DNA of 56,544 nt from contig CAZTCX010000003.1 in the NCBI GenBank assembly GCA_964612515.1, forward strand, positions 1 to 56,544, given 5' to 3'. The first letter of the stretch is position 1. Each line of letters starts with the position of its first letter. Under the pieces are notes generated by a model, which did not search any database, was not told the origin of the DNA, and saw only the letters and a program-made list of their open reading frames with translations. Both the position numbers and the translations under genes were made by a program. The DNA comes from an uncultured Lentimicrobiaceae bacterium. Lineage in GTDB: Bacteria > Bacteroidota > Bacteroidia > Bacteroidales > 4484-276. Positions 38,778 to 47,495 of this stretch are shown here, piece after piece.

Positions 38778-41700
38778 CTATCTCACAACCAACTTCACAG
38801 TTTTGGTTCCCTGATCACTCACCAGTTTTACAAAGTAAAGGCCTGATGGCTGTGAACTAAGGTCGAGCTGATGTGCTGCTTCGATAGAGATATTGCTGAT
38901 GATCTGTCCCTGCGTATTGGTTACCATCACCTTGGTGGTACTTGTGATACCGTCGATGGTGATGATGCCTGTGGTAGGATTGGGATAAACAGCAAAAGTA
39001 GTAGTCGTTACATCGCCAATAGAAGTAGCGCCGGCTTTGAACGAATCGATCATGGTAAGACCATTGATGACATAGGTTCCACTATAATCTGGCATGCTGC
39101 GACTGTAAGCAGGCTGCACGTCGATGGTTTCGTTGTCTCTAAAGATTTTCACCAGCAGAGTTTCACCTTCCAACATGCCATCGGTGGCAATGGTGGTGGG
39201 ATCGTCAGCGTAAGCTGCAAGAGCAAAGGCTTTGTTGTCGCCATTGTAAAGAACCATACCTGTACATTGTCCGTCGGCATTAAAAACACCAACAACATCT
39301 CCCGGAAGCAGCTCAGCAGCAGCTTCAGCAGAGATACCGATGATGTGAACATCGCCAGTGTAATTAACGTCGTTCCAGGTGGTGTAATTCACACGGGAAG
39401 CTGGCTTATTGAAAACTAAACTACTGGATTTGGCAACATTGAAGTCGAGGGTAGCCGGAGCGCTGAATCTAACCAGATATCCGTAGCCGGGGATGAGTTC
39501 CTCGAGGGTGTAAATGCCTCCGTAAGGCCAATAGATGGTTCCATCCAGACCAAAGGCAAACTCTACAGGCTGACCGCCGAAAACGGTAGTGGCAAGAATT
39601 GGATTCTGGCTAAGAACCGGGACAATATAGGTTCCGGTGTTAGAGCTAACAATCTTGTCTTCTACCGGATTACCATAGAATGCCAGAGCAGCGTCAGCAG
39701 CCATTTTGAGTTTATAACCCTGATAGGTGTCGTACTCGCCAATGGTGTTGATGTTGAATTCGGGCCAGAAGATTCCTGTTTTACCAAGCATAATCACCAT
39801 GTCGTCAGCAATGTCAGCCATTACTTCGTCCACGCTCATTTTTGCATTCATGCCAATGTAAGTTGAAATGTAACCCCATTGTCCGGGCTCTGGAATCATG
39901 ATTTTCTGTCCGGACTGATCCGTAACTTCAAAATGTACCAGAACTGATTCAACAAAAATTCCATTAGCACCAGTGATGATCACTTCCGATTCGTAAACTC
40001 CGGGAGCTATGGCATCAGCATCAAGTGTGAGAATGATGGTTTCGGTTCCTGGCATTAGATTGCCTGAAGTCTTACTGAGAGACATGGCTGCGTTAGCCGG
40101 AACGATTTGAGTATTCCAACCAATACCACCTAGGCCAAAGTTTTTAATATCAATATCATAGTTGATGGATTCACCAGCAAATAGGATATCGTGAATAGAT
40201 TCGGGCTGTACTTCAAAGAGTTTGTTGGTAACAATGATATTGTCGATCAGCCACCAATTGATATTAAAAGTACTCTCCCCCTCAGCTCTGAAACCAATCT
40301 GGAATAAGCCACCGGCTACCAGATCACTGATGTCGTAGGTATTCGTTTGCCATGGGATACTGCCCCAATAGTTATCAAACGCTCCCACGACATGCCATGC
40401 CGTGCCATCGTACACTTCAAATTGCATTGTCTCCAAATAATCCCAGTCATAATTGTTAAGCAAAAGGTCAAACTGCACATAAACTTTTGTTTCGTTCGTG
40501 GCATCAATAAAATGACTCTTTAGCAGCATGTTATAATTGATAGCTTCAGGATCCCAATAGAATATAGCAGAGGGGCCAGGATTTCCATCCAGATACAAAG
40601 CCCAGTTGCTTGGACTTGTACGCGTCCATTTTTGTGTGCCGTAGGAACCACTTGACCAGGTTTCGGTGAAGGGCATCGTATAGGGAACTTCCGGAACCAT
40701 TTGTACAGCAAGCTGAACGGTTCCCAGAGTTTGCAGAGTTTGCAGTGGTGTACTCAAGGTTACGTAGCCATACTTTTCGTAAACGATGTTATAAATACCG
40801 GATTCAAACTCAAAAGTCCAGGAGCCGTCTGCGGCAGTAGTCACATCGAAAGTGAGGCCAGCGTGAGGCAAGATCTCTGTCAGTTTTACTGTTACATCTC
40901 CCAAAGGTAATCCGGTAACGGCTTCTGTAACCATGCCTTCAAAAATACCGGTAAAAGGAGTGGTGAAATACCAGGGAATACATTGTTCAGGAGCACCAGC
41001 ATTGTTGTACGGGAAAATGAGCCAAACGTAGTCTTTGCCCCAGCCCCATCCGCCAGCGGGCAGATATTCGGTAACAAGGCCAATATCGTCACCATTTTCC
41101 TGATCATCAACTAGCCAAATATCGTCGGTTATGTTGTAAAGCAACAATCTGTATCCGGTTGCCGGAGCAGAACCTACAGGCAATTCCCATTGCAGTGGTT
41201 CATAAGGCAGCACACCACCAAGGTTGTCGGGTGGGAAAACCAACTCGGAACAATCAGGAGGAGGAATGGGTGCAAGGGTTGCATTTTGGACAGTGGTCAT
41301 TCCACTTTCGACAAGAATTCCTGAAATAGTGGTTTGGTAGTAATCGGGCAGATCGAAAGTCAATTCATACATTCCTAAATCCAACTCCAGCGAATAGTTG
41401 CCCAAAGCATCTGTTACATCTGCAACACCACCAGGCATAGCAGTGACAGTAACACCCGCAAGCGGATCACCTGTTGCAGCATTGGTGACTAAACCAGTGA
41501 TGTAACCTGGGGCGGGAGCTTCTTCTATCGAGATGTCATCAATAGAAATATACCAGGGAGAAGAAGTTAAACTGGCTTTAATTCCGATGTAGTAAATTCC
41601 ATCAGCAGCAGGTGTAAACACACCCAAAAGTTGCTGGTAATCACCGTTTACAATAATGGTTTCGGCTATAATTGGATTAACCATAGCTGCGGCATTGGCG

Positions 41701-43718
41701 GCATCGCCATAACTCACCGTAAGCGCAGCTCCTGTTGTAGCATCCTGGCGGGCAAACATCGAGAAAGCATATTTAACGCCACCTGTGAGCTGCACTCCTG
41801 TGAACATCCAACGTGTGTTTGAATACTGTAAGAAAGCATTCCAACCACCGGTTTTGGGCGCACGATTGTAGGTAGTCAGGGTATTATTGGCCGTCCAGTT
41901 ACCAGCTCCTAAAACTGCCTGCTGCGTCCATTCTTTAACTGGCAGATTATGGGTATTGCCCACTTCAAATCCTTCGAAGAAAGGAATCCCGTTTACAGTT
42001 TTGAAAATGAAAGGTCCGCTCCAAGTACTTAGATCTTCGGCATTACAATCGGCCTGCACATAATAAGCATAAAAAGTGCCGGGTGACAAACCGTTAATCT
42101 GATAAGGATTGTCGACGCCAATAGCTGTAGGAACCCCAGTTGGTGCAAAGCCAGCCGGACCTACTTCGATATTCCATGAGGTTGCCGTTCCGTTTTCTGT
42201 CCAACCCAGCATTGCACTGGTGGTGGTAATGTCGGTTGCGGTAAGCGCAGATGGTGCTATACATGCGGGGGGAAGTTCCATCGAAAAGTCATCGATAAAC
42301 ATATTATTCCCGTAAGCAGAAACCCCTTGTATGATAACATAAAAAATTCCTTTACCACTATTGGTAATGTTAAAAGTATATTCGTACCATCCCGCTCCCG
42401 TTTCGGCCGGTGCAAGGGTCATATTACGATTTATAGTTCCCAGTAAAGTAGCACCCGTGACATTTGCAGCCGTATTGGTGTAAACTTCTACTTTGTCGGC
42501 ATTGCTTGGATAGCCTGCATCCCGATACATCCAAAGTTTGGCTTGCACGATAGGATCAGCCACATTCACGGGTGGGCTGATAAGTGCACCTGTGGTTCCT
42601 CCGGTTAAACTAAAACAATTATACCGTGCCATGGCTGCGCCGCTATGCGGTGAACAGGTAGGGTAAGTCCCTGCTGTTTGTCTGTCCCAAATTCCGGGTG
42701 TACCGCTGCCAGCTACTTTAATATTTGTCCATCCTGTTGGAGGAAAAGTAGTCGCATCAAAACTTTCTGCATAGGGTAAAACTGTAATGGAAGGATCGGC
42801 CATAGTTGTAAAACTCCATACCGAACAGCCTGTAGCAGAACCCACTACATTATAAGCTACAATCTGCCAATAATAGGTGGTGCTGTAAGCAAATGGAGAT
42901 GCAGGAGTAAACGTGGTTACATTGCCTACATCCGTTCCATTAACAATATTGGTGGGAGGATTATCAGTACCTAAAAACAACGTGTAGCCTGTTGGCAATC
43001 CGCCGCCCGAAGCCCATTGCAGTTGCTGTGCTATGTTTACAGCCACTGCTGCATTGGCAGGTGAAGTTATCAAAGCACAGTTAGGTGGAAGCGTTGGGAC
43101 ATATGCAGCCATTTCAAACTGCACCTGCGATAATGTGGTGGTGAGAGAATAGGCTGTAGGTGGTGACGCCGGATCAGGGTTGGTACCGTCGGCGCGGTAA
43201 TAGATGGCTCGGTTAGTAGTGGCAGTATATGATCGCCAGGCCGCTGAGCATGAGTACCCGGCTGCATTTTCATCTACAGCTACCACCAGGTTGCCTCCGG
43301 TGTAATCGAAAGCAACCGGAAGGGTAAATTCAAGCCATGTACCTGCAACTTGTGCCGGAATAGTTCCTGAAAAGACCTGGGTAAGCCCACTCAACGGCAC
43401 CCAGTCGGTAGTACTCGCAAAGACACTCTTTGCGGTATTGCCCAGGTATATAGTCCAGTTGTTCCAAGCGGTTAAGGTTGTGCCTCCTGATGCATAAAAA
43501 AACCTGATTTTTGTGATGGGACCAGAACCTCCTCCTCCATCTCCTATCTCACTTGCTAAATAAATTTGCTGTGAATAGGAAAAGTCATAACATGATAAAA
43601 CAGGAACATTTGTATTGGTTGTAGTTCCTGTACCGATTTGCACAGTGACTGCCTGTGCCGTGAAAGCCCATAAAAACAAGGCAAACATTAAACTTAGCGT
43701 AATTGTAAATTTTTTCAT
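38778..43718 (-). CDS. Giant multidomain T9SS-secreted surface protein (adhesin-like)
   Basis: 1646 aa from the ATG at 43718 (MKKFTITLSLMFALFLWAFTAQA signal). It contains repeated FN3-like units (e.g. PSALTATDITTTSAMLGWTENGTATSWNIEVG), MAM/choice-of-anchor-J-like units (...IDDFSME, ...IDDISIEE, ...LIDNIIV), two CarboxypepD_reg-like units (GLVTNAATGDPLAGVTVTA, GMVTEAVTGLPLGDVTVKL), a ~300-aa module shared with 44208-47495, and a Por CTD. Confidence 0.8.
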   Translation of the reverse strand: MKKFTITLSLMFALFLWAFTAQAVTVQIGTGTTTNTNVPVLSCYDFSYSQQIYLASEIGDGGGGSGPITKIRFFYASGGTTLTAWNNWTIYLGNTAKSVFASTTDWVPLSGLTQVFSGTIPAQVAGTWLEFTLPVAFDYTGGNLVVAVDENAAGYSCSAAWRSYTATTNRAIYYRADGTNPDPASPPTAYSLTTTLSQVQFEMAAYVPTLPPNCALITSPANAAVAVNIAQQLQWASGGGLPTGYTLFLGTDNPPTNIVNGTDVGNVTTFTPASPFAYSTTYYWQIVAYNVVGSATGCSVWSFTTMADPSITVLPYAESFDATTFPPTGWTNIKVAGSGTPGIWDRQTAGTYPTCSPHSGAAMARYNCFSLTGGTTGALISPPVNVADPIVQAKLWMYRDAGYPSNADKVEVYTNTAANVTGATLLGTINRNMTLAPAETGAGWYEYTFNITNSGKGIFYVIIQGVSAYGNNMFIDDFSMELPPACIAPSALTATDITTTSAMLGWTENGTATSWNIEVGPAGFAPTGVPTAIGVDNPYQINGLSPGTFYAYYVQADCNAEDLSTWSGPFIFKTVNGIPFFEGFEVGNTHNLPVKEWTQQAVLGAGNWTANNTLTTYNRAPKTGGWNAFLQYSNTRWMFTGVQLTGGVKYAFSMFARQDATTGAALTVSYGDAANAAAMVNPIIAETIIVNGDYQQLLGVFTPAADGIYYIGIKASLTSSPWYISIDDISIEEAPAPGYITGLVTNAATGDPLAGVTVTAMPGGVADVTDALGNYSLELDLGMYELTFDLPDYYQTTISGILVESGMTTVQNATLAPIPPPDCSELVFPPDNLGGVLPYEPLQWELPVGSAPATGYRLLLYNITDDIWLVDDQENGDDIGLVTEYLPAGGWGWGKDYVWLIFPYNNAGAPEQCIPWYFTTPFTGIFEGMVTEAVTGLPLGDVTVKLTEILPHAGLTFDVTTAADGSWTFEFESGIYNIVYEKYGYVTLSTPLQTLQTLGTVQLAVQMVPEVPYTMPFTETWSSGSYGTQKWTRTSPSNWALYLDGNPGPSAIFYWDPEAINYNMLLKSHFIDATNETKVYVQFDLLLNNYDWDYLETMQFEVYDGTAWHVVGAFDNYWGSIPWQTNTYDISDLVAGGLFQIGFRAEGESTFNINWWLIDNIIVTNKLFEVQPESIHDILFAGESINYDIDIKNFGLGGIGWNTQIVPANAAMSLSKTSGNLMPGTETIILTLDADAIAPGVYESEVIITGANGIFVESVLVHFEVTDQSGQKIMIPEPGQWGYISTYIGMNAKMSVDEVMADIADDMVIMLGKTGIFWPEFNINTIGEYDTYQGYKLKMAADAALAFYGNPVEDKIVSSNTGTYIVPVLSQNPILATTVFGGQPVEFAFGLDGTIYWPYGGIYTLEELIPGYGYLVRFSAPATLDFNVAKSSSLVFNKPASRVNYTTWNDVNYTGDVHIIGISAEAAAELLPGDVVGVFNADGQCTGMVLYNGDNKAFALAAYADDPTTIATDGMLEGETLLVKIFRDNETIDVQPAYSRSMPDYSGTYVINGLTMIDSFKAGATSIGDVTTTTFAVYPNPTTGIITIDGITSTTKVMVTNTQGQIISNISIEAAHQLDLSSQPSGLYFVKLVSDQGTKTVKLVVR
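38781..38996 (-). other. T9SS (Por) C-terminal sorting domain
   Basis: FAVYPNPTTGIITIDG...GLYFVKLVSDQGTKTVKLVVR at the extreme C-terminus. Confidence 0.8.
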
Positions 43719-43771
43719 AAAAGTTAGGTTTAAAATTAATACTTCATTGAAATTTTTTGATGTCATTGTTG

Positions 43772-43787
43772 TGATCTTCGAAGATCA
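43772..43787. promoter_or_regulatory. 16-bp perfect palindrome TGATCTTCGAAGATCA upstream of the giant T9SS gene
   Basis: Lies 54 nt upstream of the ATG at 43718 (minus strand). A second palindrome, TTTGATCAAA, is at 43807-43816. Confidence 0.4.
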
Positions 43788-44139
43788 ATCATTTTTTTGA
43801 TAAAGGTTTGATCAAAGGAATTTTACCATAGGCTTGTCGTTGTTTTTGATTTTTAAATTGTTATCATTGAAAGTCAATTGTTTATTCAAACTATCATCTT
43901 TAAAAATTAGAGTAAAATGAAAAATGGCAGGTTTTGTCGCGAAATGAACAAGTCATGTCTGTGAAATTCTTAAAAGTCATCTTTGCAAATAATTTTCGTT
44001 CCTACTCAAAATCCATTTAAAGCCTACAATTATAGGAATATTTTCCGGTTGAATGGCAGCTTTTATCGATAAAAATTCATTATTGGAGAAGTATAGTTTC
44101 ATTCTAAATAGCAAATCTACTTAAACAGCTGATGGTCAG

Positions 44140-44175
44140 GCCATAAAACAACAAACCCGGACTTTGCCGGGTTTG
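44140..44175 (-). terminator. Terminator after the T9SS alpha/alpha-toroid gene
   Basis: CAAACCCGG-ACTTTG-CCGGGTTTG stem-loop. On the minus strand it is followed by TTGTTGTTTTAT. Confidence 0.7.
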
Positions 44176-44207
44176 TTGATTACAAATAAAAAAATCACGA
44201 ATGGTGA

Positions 44208-47200
44208 TTATTCCACCACAATTTTTCTAAAAACAAGATTATTGCCGTCAGCGGCTTTCATAAAGTAAATACCTTTTTCGAGTTGTGACAGATCGATGGT
44301 AACAGCATTTTGCATGGTTACCTCTTTTACAATTTGTCCGGCAGCATTGAGCAATGTGATGTTGTAGTTGCCGTCAGCAGCGATATTTAGCATTCCGGTG
44401 GTCGGGTTAGGATAAATATTAAATCCAGCTTTGGTAACATTACCAATACCCAGAGCACCCAGCTTCAAAGCTTTGATGACAGAGGTGGCTCCGTTTTCAT
44501 AAATCCCCTGATTGAACGATGCATCAAAAGTAACGTCGAGGTGGTAAACCTGGTCGGTGGCAGCACGATACACGCTGAAAGTCATCGCTTCCCCTTCCGA
44601 CAGTCCTTCTTTAATGGCGGTAGTAAAGTCGTCGCCATAGGCTACCAGTAGAAGGTTTCTACCAGGCTGTGCGTAACTGGCTAAACCAGCAATATTACCT
44701 GCCTGATTGAAAACGCCAATGTAATCGCCTGGCTCCAATATCGACAGCGCTTCAGCAGAAACTGAAATCATGTGCGGGTTACCAGTATTCACTGGGTCTT
44801 TCCACAGCGACGTATTCACTGGCTTAACAAATTGTTGTGGCTCTGCAGCGTACTTCGGAGCAAAATCAACAGTCACCGGAGCCTTCAGATTCACCAGATA
44901 ACCCATTCCGGGATTCAGTGGATTGATATTGTAAATTCCGCCGGCGGGCCAATACATCAGTGAATGTTGAATGTCGAAAGCATAATTAAGTGCGGCACCC
45001 ATATCAGCAAAAATCTGATTGGAAACAGGCACCGATGACAGCACGGGCATAAAGCTCATTCCGGCAGGAATAGTAACCTGTGAACCGGCAGGGAAACCAA
45101 ATATTTCGAGTAGCGCAGGCTCAATGATCTTGATTTTGTAGCCTTCGTAGCTATTCCAGTTGCCAATGAGGTTGATGTTGTGGCCAGGCCAGTAAATGCC
45201 ATTCTTTGCCAAAATGATCTCCATTTGATCTTCAATACCCGAAAGAACTACTTCAATGTCGGGATCAGTTGGAATGATGTAAGATGAAATTCCAAGCCAT
45301 CCTACGGGTAATTCGATTGCCTGATCGGCCTGGCTGCCGGTGCCATTTTGAGTTACAATAAAAGTAAGCTCTGTATTAGCAGCAAGTGGAGAAGAAATGG
45401 TGAGCGTACCAACGCGTCCTACTGCCGAGTTATTAGCAGCATAGTTAAAGGTAATGGTAGCATCATTGTCGCCCATATCGGGTGTAGCAGTGAGCCAGGC
45501 AGCATCGGAGGTAATCGTCCAGTCGGCGCCAGTTGTTCCTGTAAAATTAAGCGCAAAATTCCCTGAACCGGCATTAAAAGGAACTGTAGCCGAAGCTGGG
45601 TTGATGGACATTTCAGGCGCACCTATTTTTAATGTCACTGACCGCACCTGATCAGGTGTCTGAATTGTAATGACTGCTTCAAACAAACCGATTGGATTGG
45701 GTAAGCTGGCGGGGGTAACCAAAGTTACATCCACTGTAGCGGATTCACCTGCCAAAATCAAAGGAATACTAATTGGATTGATAGTAAAAGCCGATGAGGG
45801 AATAACGTTGCCATTTTGATCGGTAACATCAGAAGCATAAATGTTGATGTTGGTAATGGGTGTCAAGCCGCCCAATTCATTAATATCAAACTGGAAGTTG
45901 TAGGTATGGCTGAATTCAAACGGATTGAATCCTACAACATTGGGATCAATCTGCATCACGGGCAGCGGAGTGGGTGGAACAACAATAATTACGTTCAGGC
46001 CACCAATAGCATTAACAAATCCGGTAGCACCAATGGGTGTGAATGGTGGAACATCTTCCAGCAGGAAGCATTCCTCATCTGTGAGTTCATCAAGCAAAAA
46101 AGTTCTGTAACATAATTCAGCAGATTTGAATTCACCACAAGTATTTACGATCTGTGCGCCGTAGTTACCCGATTCAAGTACTTGAATTTCGATTTCAAAA
46201 TAATCGCCAGAGGTGGAGGTCCATTCCGAAAGTGGGATATTGGTGTACCAAACACCATTGTCTCTTCCGGCGGAATTACCCTGATCATCAAATACTGTAA
46301 ATTCAAAGCAGTCTTCTTTGGCTGGATCGGTATCAAGCGAGATTTTCAGGGTACTTCCTTCTGGCACTCCCGAAGTTTGCAAGCACAATAGTGCAAGTGC
46401 AGTTTCGAGCACAGGTCCCTGGCTGCCCCACTGATCCCAATAATAATTGCCATTGCCATCAGTGAAATGCTGGCCTTCGATGGCATTGTAAAGATATTCG
46501 TACCAATTGCCTCCAGCAAAGATGGTTTGAGCACTCAATTGCATGGCTTTTGAAAACCCGTAGAGGTAATAATAGTAGCCACCACCAGAATAAACATAAT
46601 TGTAATTAACCTGGCCGGGATCGATAAGCTGTGAGAGTGTGAAATTGTCGAGGTAATTATAATAACGGGTTTTGAGATTATTGGCAGCAGCCACACCTTT
46701 GTCAGCAGCCAAAACTGCGCCCCAAGTGCCGGAACAGGTATTGCCATGGGTCCAGGTATTACATTCTGTGTAACCAATGTAAGAGTAGTCGCCCGATGAG
46801 CAGCTTCTGTTTAATTGGTAGTTATAAATTTTATTCCAGATGTCTTTACCAGTATAATTCATGATGTCGAAAGCCAAATAGACCCATTGGTTTACAGACA
46901 TGTCACCAGTAAACTGGCCAGTATAGCCGCGGTTGTATCGCCAACTGACGGCAGTCCAGGCATCCTGAACATCCTGGGTGTAGTAATTTAACCCCAAATC
47001 CAGCGCGGTATTAATGCTGGTTGCAAGTGCACCTGAGATGAATCCACCACCGTTAAGTGGGGTTATCAGCGCAAGTTTAAGTGCAAAAATACACTGAGCT
47101 GTTTCATAACCATTTTCACCTGTATTCCCAAATCCTCCGGCATAATATCCAGTCGTGGTTTGCTGTGACAAGATGTAGTTGATGGCGTTTGTAACAACAG

Positions 47201-47495
47201 TGCCGTAAAGTGGATCATCGATGTTGTGGCCATCGTTCAGGAAAGCCTGAAGACAAAGTGCACTAGTACCGGGTCTTTGCCACTGGCCAACAGCTTTTGA
47301 TTCTGGTATTACGGCGGTGGGATCTGTACTTCTACCCATAATGCCGGGTTCGTATCCTTTGCTGGTGCTTTGCACCGAAGCCAAATAAGCCAATCCTTTT
47401 TCTATCAGGATATTCGACTTCTGGGCTTCTGCCTGCGAGCTAAAAAGCAGTACGGCTCCAGCCATTAAAAAAGTAAATAAAAATTTTAGTTTCAT
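44208..47495 (-). CDS. T9SS-secreted protein with an N-terminal prenyltransferase/squalene-cyclase-like alpha/alpha-toroid, Ig/BACON-like domains and the shared pre-CTD module
   Basis: 1095 aa with a signal peptide. The first ~370 aa are helical-repeat, Gly/aromatic-rich (YILSQQTTTGYYAGGFG, ...PVLETALALLCLQ). A BACON-like unit follows (DWTITSDAAWLTATPDMGDNDATITFNYAANNSAVGRVGTLTISS). The C-terminus is a Por CTD (FNIYPNPTTGMLNI...GIYFMKA...KIVVE). Confidence 0.7.
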   Translation of the reverse strand: MKLKFLFTFLMAGAVLLFSSQAEAQKSNILIEKGLAYLASVQSTSKGYEPGIMGRSTDPTAVIPESKAVGQWQRPGTSALCLQAFLNDGHNIDDPLYGTVVTNAINYILSQQTTTGYYAGGFGNTGENGYETAQCIFALKLALITPLNGGGFISGALATSINTALDLGLNYYTQDVQDAWTAVSWRYNRGYTGQFTGDMSVNQWVYLAFDIMNYTGKDIWNKIYNYQLNRSCSSGDYSYIGYTECNTWTHGNTCSGTWGAVLAADKGVAAANNLKTRYYNYLDNFTLSQLIDPGQVNYNYVYSGGGYYYYLYGFSKAMQLSAQTIFAGGNWYEYLYNAIEGQHFTDGNGNYYWDQWGSQGPVLETALALLCLQTSGVPEGSTLKISLDTDPAKEDCFEFTVFDDQGNSAGRDNGVWYTNIPLSEWTSTSGDYFEIEIQVLESGNYGAQIVNTCGEFKSAELCYRTFLLDELTDEECFLLEDVPPFTPIGATGFVNAIGGLNVIIVVPPTPLPVMQIDPNVVGFNPFEFSHTYNFQFDINELGGLTPITNINIYASDVTDQNGNVIPSSAFTINPISIPLILAGESATVDVTLVTPASLPNPIGLFEAVITIQTPDQVRSVTLKIGAPEMSINPASATVPFNAGSGNFALNFTGTTGADWTITSDAAWLTATPDMGDNDATITFNYAANNSAVGRVGTLTISSPLAANTELTFIVTQNGTGSQADQAIELPVGWLGISSYIIPTDPDIEVVLSGIEDQMEIILAKNGIYWPGHNINLIGNWNSYEGYKIKIIEPALLEIFGFPAGSQVTIPAGMSFMPVLSSVPVSNQIFADMGAALNYAFDIQHSLMYWPAGGIYNINPLNPGMGYLVNLKAPVTVDFAPKYAAEPQQFVKPVNTSLWKDPVNTGNPHMISVSAEALSILEPGDYIGVFNQAGNIAGLASYAQPGRNLLLVAYGDDFTTAIKEGLSEGEAMTFSVYRAATDQVYHLDVTFDASFNQGIYENGATSVIKALKLGALGIGNVTKAGFNIYPNPTTGMLNIAADGNYNITLLNAAGQIVKEVTMQNAVTIDLSQLEKGIYFMKAADGNNLVFRKIVVE
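44211..44426 (-). other. T9SS (Por) C-terminal sorting domain
   Basis: GFNIYPNPTTGMLNIAADGNYNITLLNAAGQIVKEV...GIYFMKAADGNNLVFRKIVVE. Confidence 0.8.

Follow-up and report, generated by a model that had tools for sequence, protein, structure and literature searches.

Two adjacent genes of an uncultured Lentimicrobiaceae bacterium (order Bacteroidales) encode type IX secretion system (T9SS) cargo proteins whose shared C-terminal stretch comprises two unannotated all-beta domains, here termed A and B, which are autonomous and form a cassette ahead of a type A C-terminal sorting domain (CTD). The genes lie in a stretch of 56,544 nucleotides, referred to as the window (positions 1 to 56,544 of contig CAZTCX010000003.1, assembly GCA_964612515.1). 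The cassette is massively amplified in the source family, and it is certain that A and B each constitute a new and very large domain family, that the predicted fold of one of them is unmatched, and that their lineage-specific expansion is striking. The docking mechanism proposed for them is hypothetical: judged by how the two domains are fused, separated and distributed, A and B may be cognate binding partners that form a docking system for T9SS cargo, a reading held tentatively and placed slightly short of an even chance.

The two open reading frames (ORFs) occupy window positions 38781-43766 (minus strand, 1662 amino acids (aa) from the first ATG) and 44211-47495 (minus strand, 1095 aa). BLASTP comparison of their products returned one significant alignment, between residues 1284-1662 and 722-1095, with 137 of 385 columns identical (36%, E 1e-59); all segments outside it have E > 1, and the N-terminal parts are therefore unrelated. 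The original prediction, which had recognized the collinear stretch by eye, was thus correct about the similarity, about the unrelated N-terminal parts and about the motifs it listed, which are present. It had also given the first protein as 1646 aa, and this start is favoured: the first ATG (43766) puts 16 residues (MTSKNFNEVLILNLTF) before the signal peptide MKKFTITLSLMFALFLWAFTAQA (window 43671-43766, minus strand), and the ATG at 43718 is the likelier start because the signal peptide begins there.

The similarity extends well beyond the sorting domain. The Pfam Por_Secre_tail match is limited to residues 1593-1661 of the 1662-aa protein and 1027-1094 of the 1095-aa protein; as it covers only the last ~70 aa, some 305-309 shared residues remain ahead of the CTD, directly preceding it in both genes, as had been claimed. 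Measured against curated cut-offs of 27 bits for PF18962 and 23 bits for TIGR04183, the tail of the 1662-aa protein scores 47.8 bits (E 1.8e-12) and 50.9 bits (E 1.1e-13), and that of the 1095-aa protein 57.9 bits (E 1.3e-15) and 50.8 bits (E 1.2e-13). Both tails are bona fide T9SS type A CTDs, and the A-B cassette lies outside the match. Within the shared stretch, no match to Pfam (2025 copy), NCBIfam (June 2026) or PDB sequences was obtained, permissive thresholds and the single scanning of 26 paralogues included, and the earlier statement that it corresponds to no named domain stands.

What had been described as one module of about 300 aa is, instead, two independent domains that also occur apart: they are regarded as autonomous because some ORFs end exactly at A, and others carry B right behind a signal peptide. 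Domain A (~157 aa) consists of two tandem repeats of ~75 aa with the motifs GW, YWP, INT.G and PG.xY; its halves align with each other at a probability of 99.2% (E 1.5e-19, hhalign), and both contain GW..., a short helix, YWP...I.TL and L.PG.xY. Domain B (~113 aa) is marked by H.I.I, GD.IG.F, C.G and FGDD..T..DG..GE. By hhalign the A, B and CTD profiles are mutually unrelated, A and B matching a 183-member CTD profile at probabilities of 0.4% and 0.3%, respectively. The spacing is tightly kept: among 225 diverse fetched family members, from which the linker and architecture statistics are drawn, the linker between A and B measures 23 aa at the median (interquartile range (IQR) 22-26, 183 proteins), and the distance from B to the CTD, counted from the end of one hidden Markov model (HMM) match to the start of the next, has a median of 11 aa (IQR 11-11.75, range 7-16, 172 proteins). 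The latter linker follows the loose consensus K.GATGI.(D/E) and is a candidate region for cleavage by the T9SS sortase (PorU) and attachment to lipopolysaccharide (LPS). In the window, the parts of the two proteins are as follows.

39438..39908, minus strand: domain A of the 1662-aa protein (aa 1287-1443); paralogue HMM, coordinates checked by translation.
39648-39908 and 39438-39647, minus strand: repeats 1 and 2 of that A domain; hhalign of the halves.
39369..39437, minus strand: A-to-B linker of the 1662-aa protein, 23 aa, ending in a conserved W (TTWND); paralogue alignment.
39030..39368, minus strand: domain B of the 1662-aa protein (aa 1467-1579), of the 'down' (pre-CTD) subtype; HMM, translation and B tree.
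38991..39029, minus strand: B-to-CTD linker of the 1662-aa protein, ATSIGDVTTTTFA; HMM spacing and translation.
38781..38990, minus strand: T9SS type A CTD of the 1662-aa protein; PF18962, TIGR04183.
44859..45323, minus strand: domain A of the 1095-aa protein (aa 725-879); HMM, and AlphaFold model of exactly that stretch.
45075-45323 and 44859-45074, minus strand: repeats 1 and 2 of that A domain.
44796..44858, minus strand: A-to-B linker of the 1095-aa protein, 21 aa; alignment, and pLDDT of 85-91 in the three-domain model.
44457..44795, minus strand: domain B of the 1095-aa protein (aa 901-1013); HMM.
44418..44456, minus strand: B-to-CTD linker of the 1095-aa protein, ALGIGNVTKAGFN; model, HMM spacing and translation.
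44211..44417, minus strand: T9SS type A CTD of the 1095-aa protein; PF18962, TIGR04183, the model matching solved CTDs.
39909..43718, minus strand: passenger of the first protein, with signal peptide, FN3, two CarboxypepD_reg-like domains and others; BLASTP, Pfam.
45324..47495, minus strand: passenger of the second protein, with signal peptide, N-terminal region and a BACON domain at aa 629-716; BLASTP, Pfam.

The cassette does not belong to any of the CTD, cohesin, dockerin, FN3, GW and type B CTD families. Cohesin (PF00963) and dockerin (PF00404) gave no match within either domain at E up to 10, nor in 26 cassette members at E up to 1. The GW module (PF13457) gave no significant match, one of the 26 members reaching E 0.46, and the type B CTD models (PF13585 CHU_C, TIGR04131) matched three of 26 members carrying cassette plus CTD at E >= 0.014 and none of nine proteins that end at A (hereafter X-A proteins). 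Against PDB chains, the A profile met FN3 chains in the L.PG.xY motif only (E 0.15-0.46, nothing significant), and neither the B profile nor the whole module gave anything significant. As a side observation, one X-A protein (410 aa, C32:24522-25778) has a sub-threshold cohesin match in its N-terminal passenger (E 2.5e-4, 21.7 vs 24.1 bits).

These comparisons also bear on the idea that A, and perhaps B, is lectin-like, binding a glycan such as the anionic LPS, O-antigen or capsule of the cell itself, or a substrate polysaccharide, so that A would retain proteins non-covalently at the surface while its association with B would be indirect. The tandem repeat of A is rich in invariant aromatics (GW, YWP, GY), B has invariant acidic GDD, DG and GE motifs like those of many sugar- or Ca-binding modules, A stands at the C-terminus of enzymes, as carbohydrate-binding modules (CBMs) often do, and its profile does meet clostridial cell-wall-binding repeats, although very weakly (E 1.8-4.8). 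We nevertheless consider this quite unlikely, given that no significant similarity to CBM, GW or cell-wall-binding families was detected and that such a tether would leave the co-occurrence of A and B, their fixed geometry, the split gene pairs and the minimal anchored B proteins described below unexplained; how X-A proteins are exported would stay a problem as well.

The A-B-CTD part of the 1095-aa protein, modelled by AlphaFold2 from a 26-paralogue alignment, is all-beta with few short helices (predicted local distance difference test (pLDDT) 91.6, predicted template modelling score (pTM) 0.76). The disordered, low-pLDDT part is confined to the B-CTD linker, the A-B linker retaining a pLDDT of 85-91, and a pTM this high despite the floppy tail suggests a rigid placement of A relative to B. 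In Foldseek comparisons the CTD part matches solved T9SS CTDs (8glk_D, TM-score (TM) 0.84; 8qb1, TM 0.72), and B is predicted to have about seven beta strands and one short helix; the three-domain model could not name A or B, as everything beyond the CTD consisted of generic multi-immunoglobulin (multi-Ig) alignments with TM < 0.2. Domain A alone, predicted for the stretch of the 1095-aa protein with 47 sequences, reaches pLDDT 98.0 and pTM 0.90, and a Foldseek search of 350,542 PDB chains returned no neighbour (best E 0.52, TM <= 0.24, none at E <= 0.001); the fold of A is therefore predicted with confidence, yet this method detects no solved analogue of it. Its sole structural neighbour in the libraries searched is a viral predicted structure, BFVD A0A8D9C8P8 (E 2e-3, TMq 0.62), a protein of 587 aa described as 'putative hemin binding protein' and assigned to an uncultured marine phage. 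This entry is probably a relative of the bacterial type and may come either from a bacterial contig misfiled under viruses or from a copy carried by a phage; it says nothing about function.

The source assembly (4.03 Mb, 338 contigs, 91.6% complete) was surveyed through stop-to-stop ORFs with HMMs built from the paralogues. SprA is encoded (2606 bits), and the T9SS is therefore present. The genome's own tails yield an HMM that places the type A CTD on 183 ORFs, roughly 5% of genes, and the module matches in 55 places. By domain order, 28 proteins, or 15% of the CTD-bearing ORFs, have the order passenger, A, B and CTD (X-A-B-CTD), the tail after the module always being 76-93 aa, the length of the CTD; about 20 ORFs end at A (16 X-A and four B..A), stopping 0-7 aa after it and lacking a CTD; and about 10 have B directly after the signal peptide. 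A broadened HMM found no further, more divergent B domains in this genome. Two sets of overlapping frames belong here as well, a B-starting frame followed by an A-ending one (C38:5719-11570), which when joined would give B-X-A, and a B-starting frame followed by A-B-CTD (C104:2239-8636), which when joined would give B-X-A-B-CTD; both are probably single genes broken by masked (N) stretches or frameshifts.

The neighbourhood of the two window genes, from which the original prediction had argued, looks incidental, because the 28 cassettes are found all over the genome and each window copy has a closer paralogue than the other. A copy on another contig (C103) shares 44% identity with the module of the 1662-aa protein, as compared with 38% for the neighbouring copy, and both window A domains fall in one clade of the A tree, made up entirely of A domains with B and CTD in cis, yet are not mutual nearest relatives. 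The suggestion of a common role, such as anchoring, co-assembly or a shared partner, agrees with the direction of the comparative evidence. A third X-A-B-CTD gene lies on the same contig just past the end of the window (C3:66645-69620, plus strand, 992-aa frame, partly masked).

The cassette is also not invariably fixed before a CTD, as had been supposed, and the proteins that end at A are one exception. They carry ordinary Sec leaders of the signal-peptidase-I type, like the CTD-bearing proteins, and the idea that they are lipoproteins was rejected on this ground. Stop read-through or frameshifting was likewise rejected as the cause of their ends, since the stops fall at the domain boundary in many genomes, and in most cases no B follows the stop in any frame. 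Passenger domains were sought in nine X-A proteins and include two M14 carboxypeptidases, a gingipain-like C25 peptidase with propeptide and Ig-like domain, LTD (Lamin Tail Domain), CHB_HEX_C and Kre9_KNH domains, and a string of starch-binding modules; outside these nine, a further protein appears leucine-rich-repeat (LRR)-like, judged from its LxxLxL-type repeats. Such passengers look like typical surface or extracellular cargo. Terminal A is not a separate subfamily, a possibility that was dismissed once terminal and cis A domains proved to be interleaved in the tree, with at least 11 switches; B-CTD has therefore often been gained or lost.

That some 20 Sec-exported, cargo-like proteins end precisely in A without a CTD could mean that a C-terminal A itself serves as a non-canonical sorting domain, recognized by the T9SS or some dedicated carrier. 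A signal of this kind is known at the C-terminus of Flavobacterium johnsoniae ChiA and is like neither type A nor type B CTDs. The end of A (L..L.PGKAYLVK...) is superficially like the last strands of type A CTDs. We regard this as very unlikely all the same, since about 70% of A domains are internal, with B and a canonical CTD behind them, an odd arrangement for a signal, and since A is twice the size of known CTDs, differs from them in predicted architecture and meets their profile at the 0.4% probability given above.

Beyond the source genome, HMMER was used to scan 1.84 billion cluster representatives worldwide with the A profile, which matched 15,464 proteins at E <= 1e-3, 7,412 at <= 1e-10 and 1,651 at <= 1e-30. 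Among the best 150 of the 15,464, 103 continue for 201-260 aa beyond A (median 226, corresponding to B plus CTD), 35 stop no more than 20 aa past it, and 12 fit neither pattern. Named homologues, among them those of a search for related loci seeded with an alignment of eight A sequences, come from Bacteroidales, Lentimicrobiaceae or 'Bacteroidetes' metagenome-assembled genomes (MAGs), many loci per MAG. In each of 18 genomes from the same family there are between 34 and more than 120 A matches, as against 1-5 matches in only four of 12 other families of the order. Among 80 loci of related MAGs, about 60 A-B-CTD proteins stand against 28 that stop 0-11 aa after A. In a 400-genome sample of the phylum, A was found in 47 genomes and B in 28, mostly of other classes, and both were absent from the same-order genomes and from most same-class genomes. 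The two domains travel together in this sample, A being present in 25 of the 28 genomes with B, and B in 21 of the 22 with a strong A match, counts that are a qualitative sign of coupling only, because relatedness inflates them.

Among the 225 fetched proteins, 131 are A-B-CTD, 40 A only, 21 B-A-B-CTD, 10 A-B-A-B-CTD, six B-A and five B-B-A-B-CTD, the remaining 12 being spread over ten rarer architectures; A and B therefore alternate. The extra B domains lie 4-8 aa upstream of A in 39 of 54 cases, forming contiguous B-A-B-CTD cassettes with a B of the free type, and a minority are N-terminal, separated from A by as much as 3,600 aa of passenger. In a tree of 145 B leaves, the B domains before a CTD separate from all other B domains with only six changes, and no far-N-terminal B has a pre-CTD B as its nearest neighbour. 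Only one of 11 B-CTD copies without A (O7358) is nearest to the pre-CTD type, and it probably represents the end of an A-B-CTD protein cut off by the contig edge. The split thus defines two B subtypes, one on each side of A.

In other genomes A and B are divided between neighbouring genes. Two loci (L112 in G036 and L129 in G289) have an X-A gene followed directly by a gene for signal peptide, B and, further on, a CTD; six further genomes have an A-bearing gene followed by one that starts with B. Giant A...CTD genes precede small B-like-CTD genes in G036 and G344, and A-B-CTD genes precede genes starting with one to three B domains in G281, G365, G344 and G005. At least eight genomes encode minimal proteins of about 240-320 aa that consist of signal peptide, B, short linker and CTD, and at two loci (L139, G333:C25; L140, G169:C125) a B-A-B-CTD gene is followed by a lipoprotein gene, with Cys after the leader, whose product has CarboxypepD_reg-like repeats and B at its very C-terminus. 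B thus repeatedly appears as the membrane-anchored piece and A as the piece left without an anchor. B, like A, departs from the fixed position originally proposed, being found after signal peptides, directly before A, or alone ahead of a CTD.

A rival reading makes the cassette simply a spacer that holds passengers off the outer membrane, in the manner of the Ig-like domain ahead of the gingipain CTD, and that spreads among cargo genes by duplication and recombination, with X-A proteins as truncation products that are periplasmic or otherwise released, and free B domains as unrelated uses of a generic beta-sandwich. The fixed position and linker lengths before the CTD, the interleaving of terminal and cis A with frequent gain or loss of B-CTD, the family-wide expansion, which resembles cassette shuffling, and the resemblance of the three-domain model to generic multi-Ig proteins only are all in keeping with such a stalk. 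It is harder to reconcile with X-A proteins that end 0-11 aa from the domain boundary in many genomes with A full-length and high-scoring, and that make up about a quarter of the best matches worldwide. Minimal B-CTD proteins, moreover, have nothing to space, and neither the X-A/B-CTD neighbour pairs nor the phyletic coupling of A and B would be expected of a spacer. On balance, a purely passive role seems unlikely.

Docking between A and B is favoured because the pair recurs as a fusion in the fixed order A then B, as contiguous B-A, split by a passenger, or in neighbouring genes, and because of the phyletic coupling and the apparently rigid arrangement in cis, a combination that is the classical comparative sign of domains binding one another. 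Sortase processing of type A cargo is established in Porphyromonas (PMC4560394, PMC8545088), and the T9SS transports folded proteins (PMC9251779), moving them by pulling the PorV-bound CTD out of SprA (PMC10994853). Within this framework, the pre-CTD B would land beside the anionic-LPS anchor once the sortase has removed the CTD, and A and B together would form a rigid, membrane-proximal base of the cargo. A free B anchored by CTD or lipid could then act as the dock and the C-terminal A of other proteins as the plug, so that X-A proteins, which have no CTD and include M14 and C25 peptidases as well as starch-binding and LRR proteins, would be retained by CTD-bearing partners and perhaps exported with them, and the N-terminal B of giant proteins could clasp back onto the basal A. 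That A has two repeats and is flanked by a different B subtype on either side invites the speculation that each repeat offers one face for binding B. The wider proposition, in which anchored B receptors and C-terminal A plugs display, and possibly export, enzymes that lack a sorting domain, and giant adhesins are clasped at both ends, is in our view rather doubtful; it would amount to a Gram-negative counterpart of the cellulosome principle and to the first hitch-hiking route through the T9SS.

Several points weigh against docking. We infer A:B binding from fusion, fission, neighbourhood and co-occurrence, and the alternating arrays could be mere beads on a string. The rigid contact in cis is suggested by pTM and linker statistics rather than by coordinates or predicted aligned error (PAE). 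The interleaving of terminal and cis A fits plain recombinational gain and loss of B-CTD equally well. In the source genome, free A (about 20) outnumbers free B (about 10), and the X-A genes have no conserved downstream gene and no B-type neighbour, many being followed by convergent genes; among distant genomes, a B-CTD gene lies directly downstream of only two of the eight X-A genes examined. Furthermore, no precedent for hitch-hiking through the T9SS was found in the searchable literature, which likewise yielded no description of the A/B family, of T9SS docking pairs or of pertinent work on CTD-less T9SS cargo.

The closest analogy for the proposed docking is the cohesin-dockerin system of the cellulosome, with its C-terminal plug on many enzymes and anchored receptor, in tandem on scaffolds. 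Dockerin, like A, is an internal duplication, and both systems would assemble extracellular enzymes at the cell surface, as proposed here for A and B. The two differ in that no sequence or profile similarity connects them, that A is a 157-aa all-beta domain whereas dockerin is a 70-aa Ca-binding helical duplication, that A and B occur in Gram-negative T9SS cargo with a receptor anchored by CTD/LPS or lipid, and that A and B, as putative partners, are mostly fused in one chain. The other system close in logic is the immunoglobulin superfamily (IgSF) domain that separates the catalytic domain from the CTD in gingipain RgpB and is found in other T9SS cargo; like B, it is beta-rich and placed directly before a type A CTD, beside the sortase site. 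B, in contrast, is a distinct unannotated family paired with a second domain, and both members of the pair are found in CTD-less proteins, N-terminally, in tandem arrays and, for B, in the minimal B-CTD proteins. The type A CTD itself adjoins the cassette in the same proteins and defines their cargo class, while the cassette is neither part of it nor related to it. Listeria GW modules, SLH domains and choline-binding repeats resemble A as tandem, aromatic-rich C-terminal repeats on secreted enzymes that could keep proteins at the surface non-covalently; their ligands, however, are Gram-positive wall polymers, and they have no significant similarity to A or B. If X-A proteins do leave together with B-CTD partners, their route would need to parallel Tat hitch-hiker export or peroxisomal piggy-back import, where a folded signal-less protein is carried by its partner; a T9SS counterpart, not described in the searchable literature, is here purely hypothetical.

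T9SS cargo is currently recognized by its C-terminal sorting domain alone, and an unannotated domain pair that accounts for 1-3% of genes across a whole family, one common in anaerobic digesters and sediments, justifies two domain-family entries and structure determination. The cargo-like X-A enzymes, which number dozens per genome and include peptidases and starch binders, offer a testable handle on how CTD-less proteins reach the surface in T9SS bacteria. Should A indeed bind B, the pair would provide a ready-made orthogonal docking system for surface display in Bacteroidota.

Finally, the repeat unit of A may reach beyond the cassette. In the source genome a much more divergent A-like double repeat (GWNWMSF...GFGWFGTL...PGKGYQI) is found at C78:69-584, where it begins a frame of 1766 aa that runs off the contig. 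In other classes, many weak A matches occur at E 1e-6 to 1e-10, with up to nine scored per genome (G133, G169 and G197 among them), and these point to a wider superfamily of the ~75-aa repeat.

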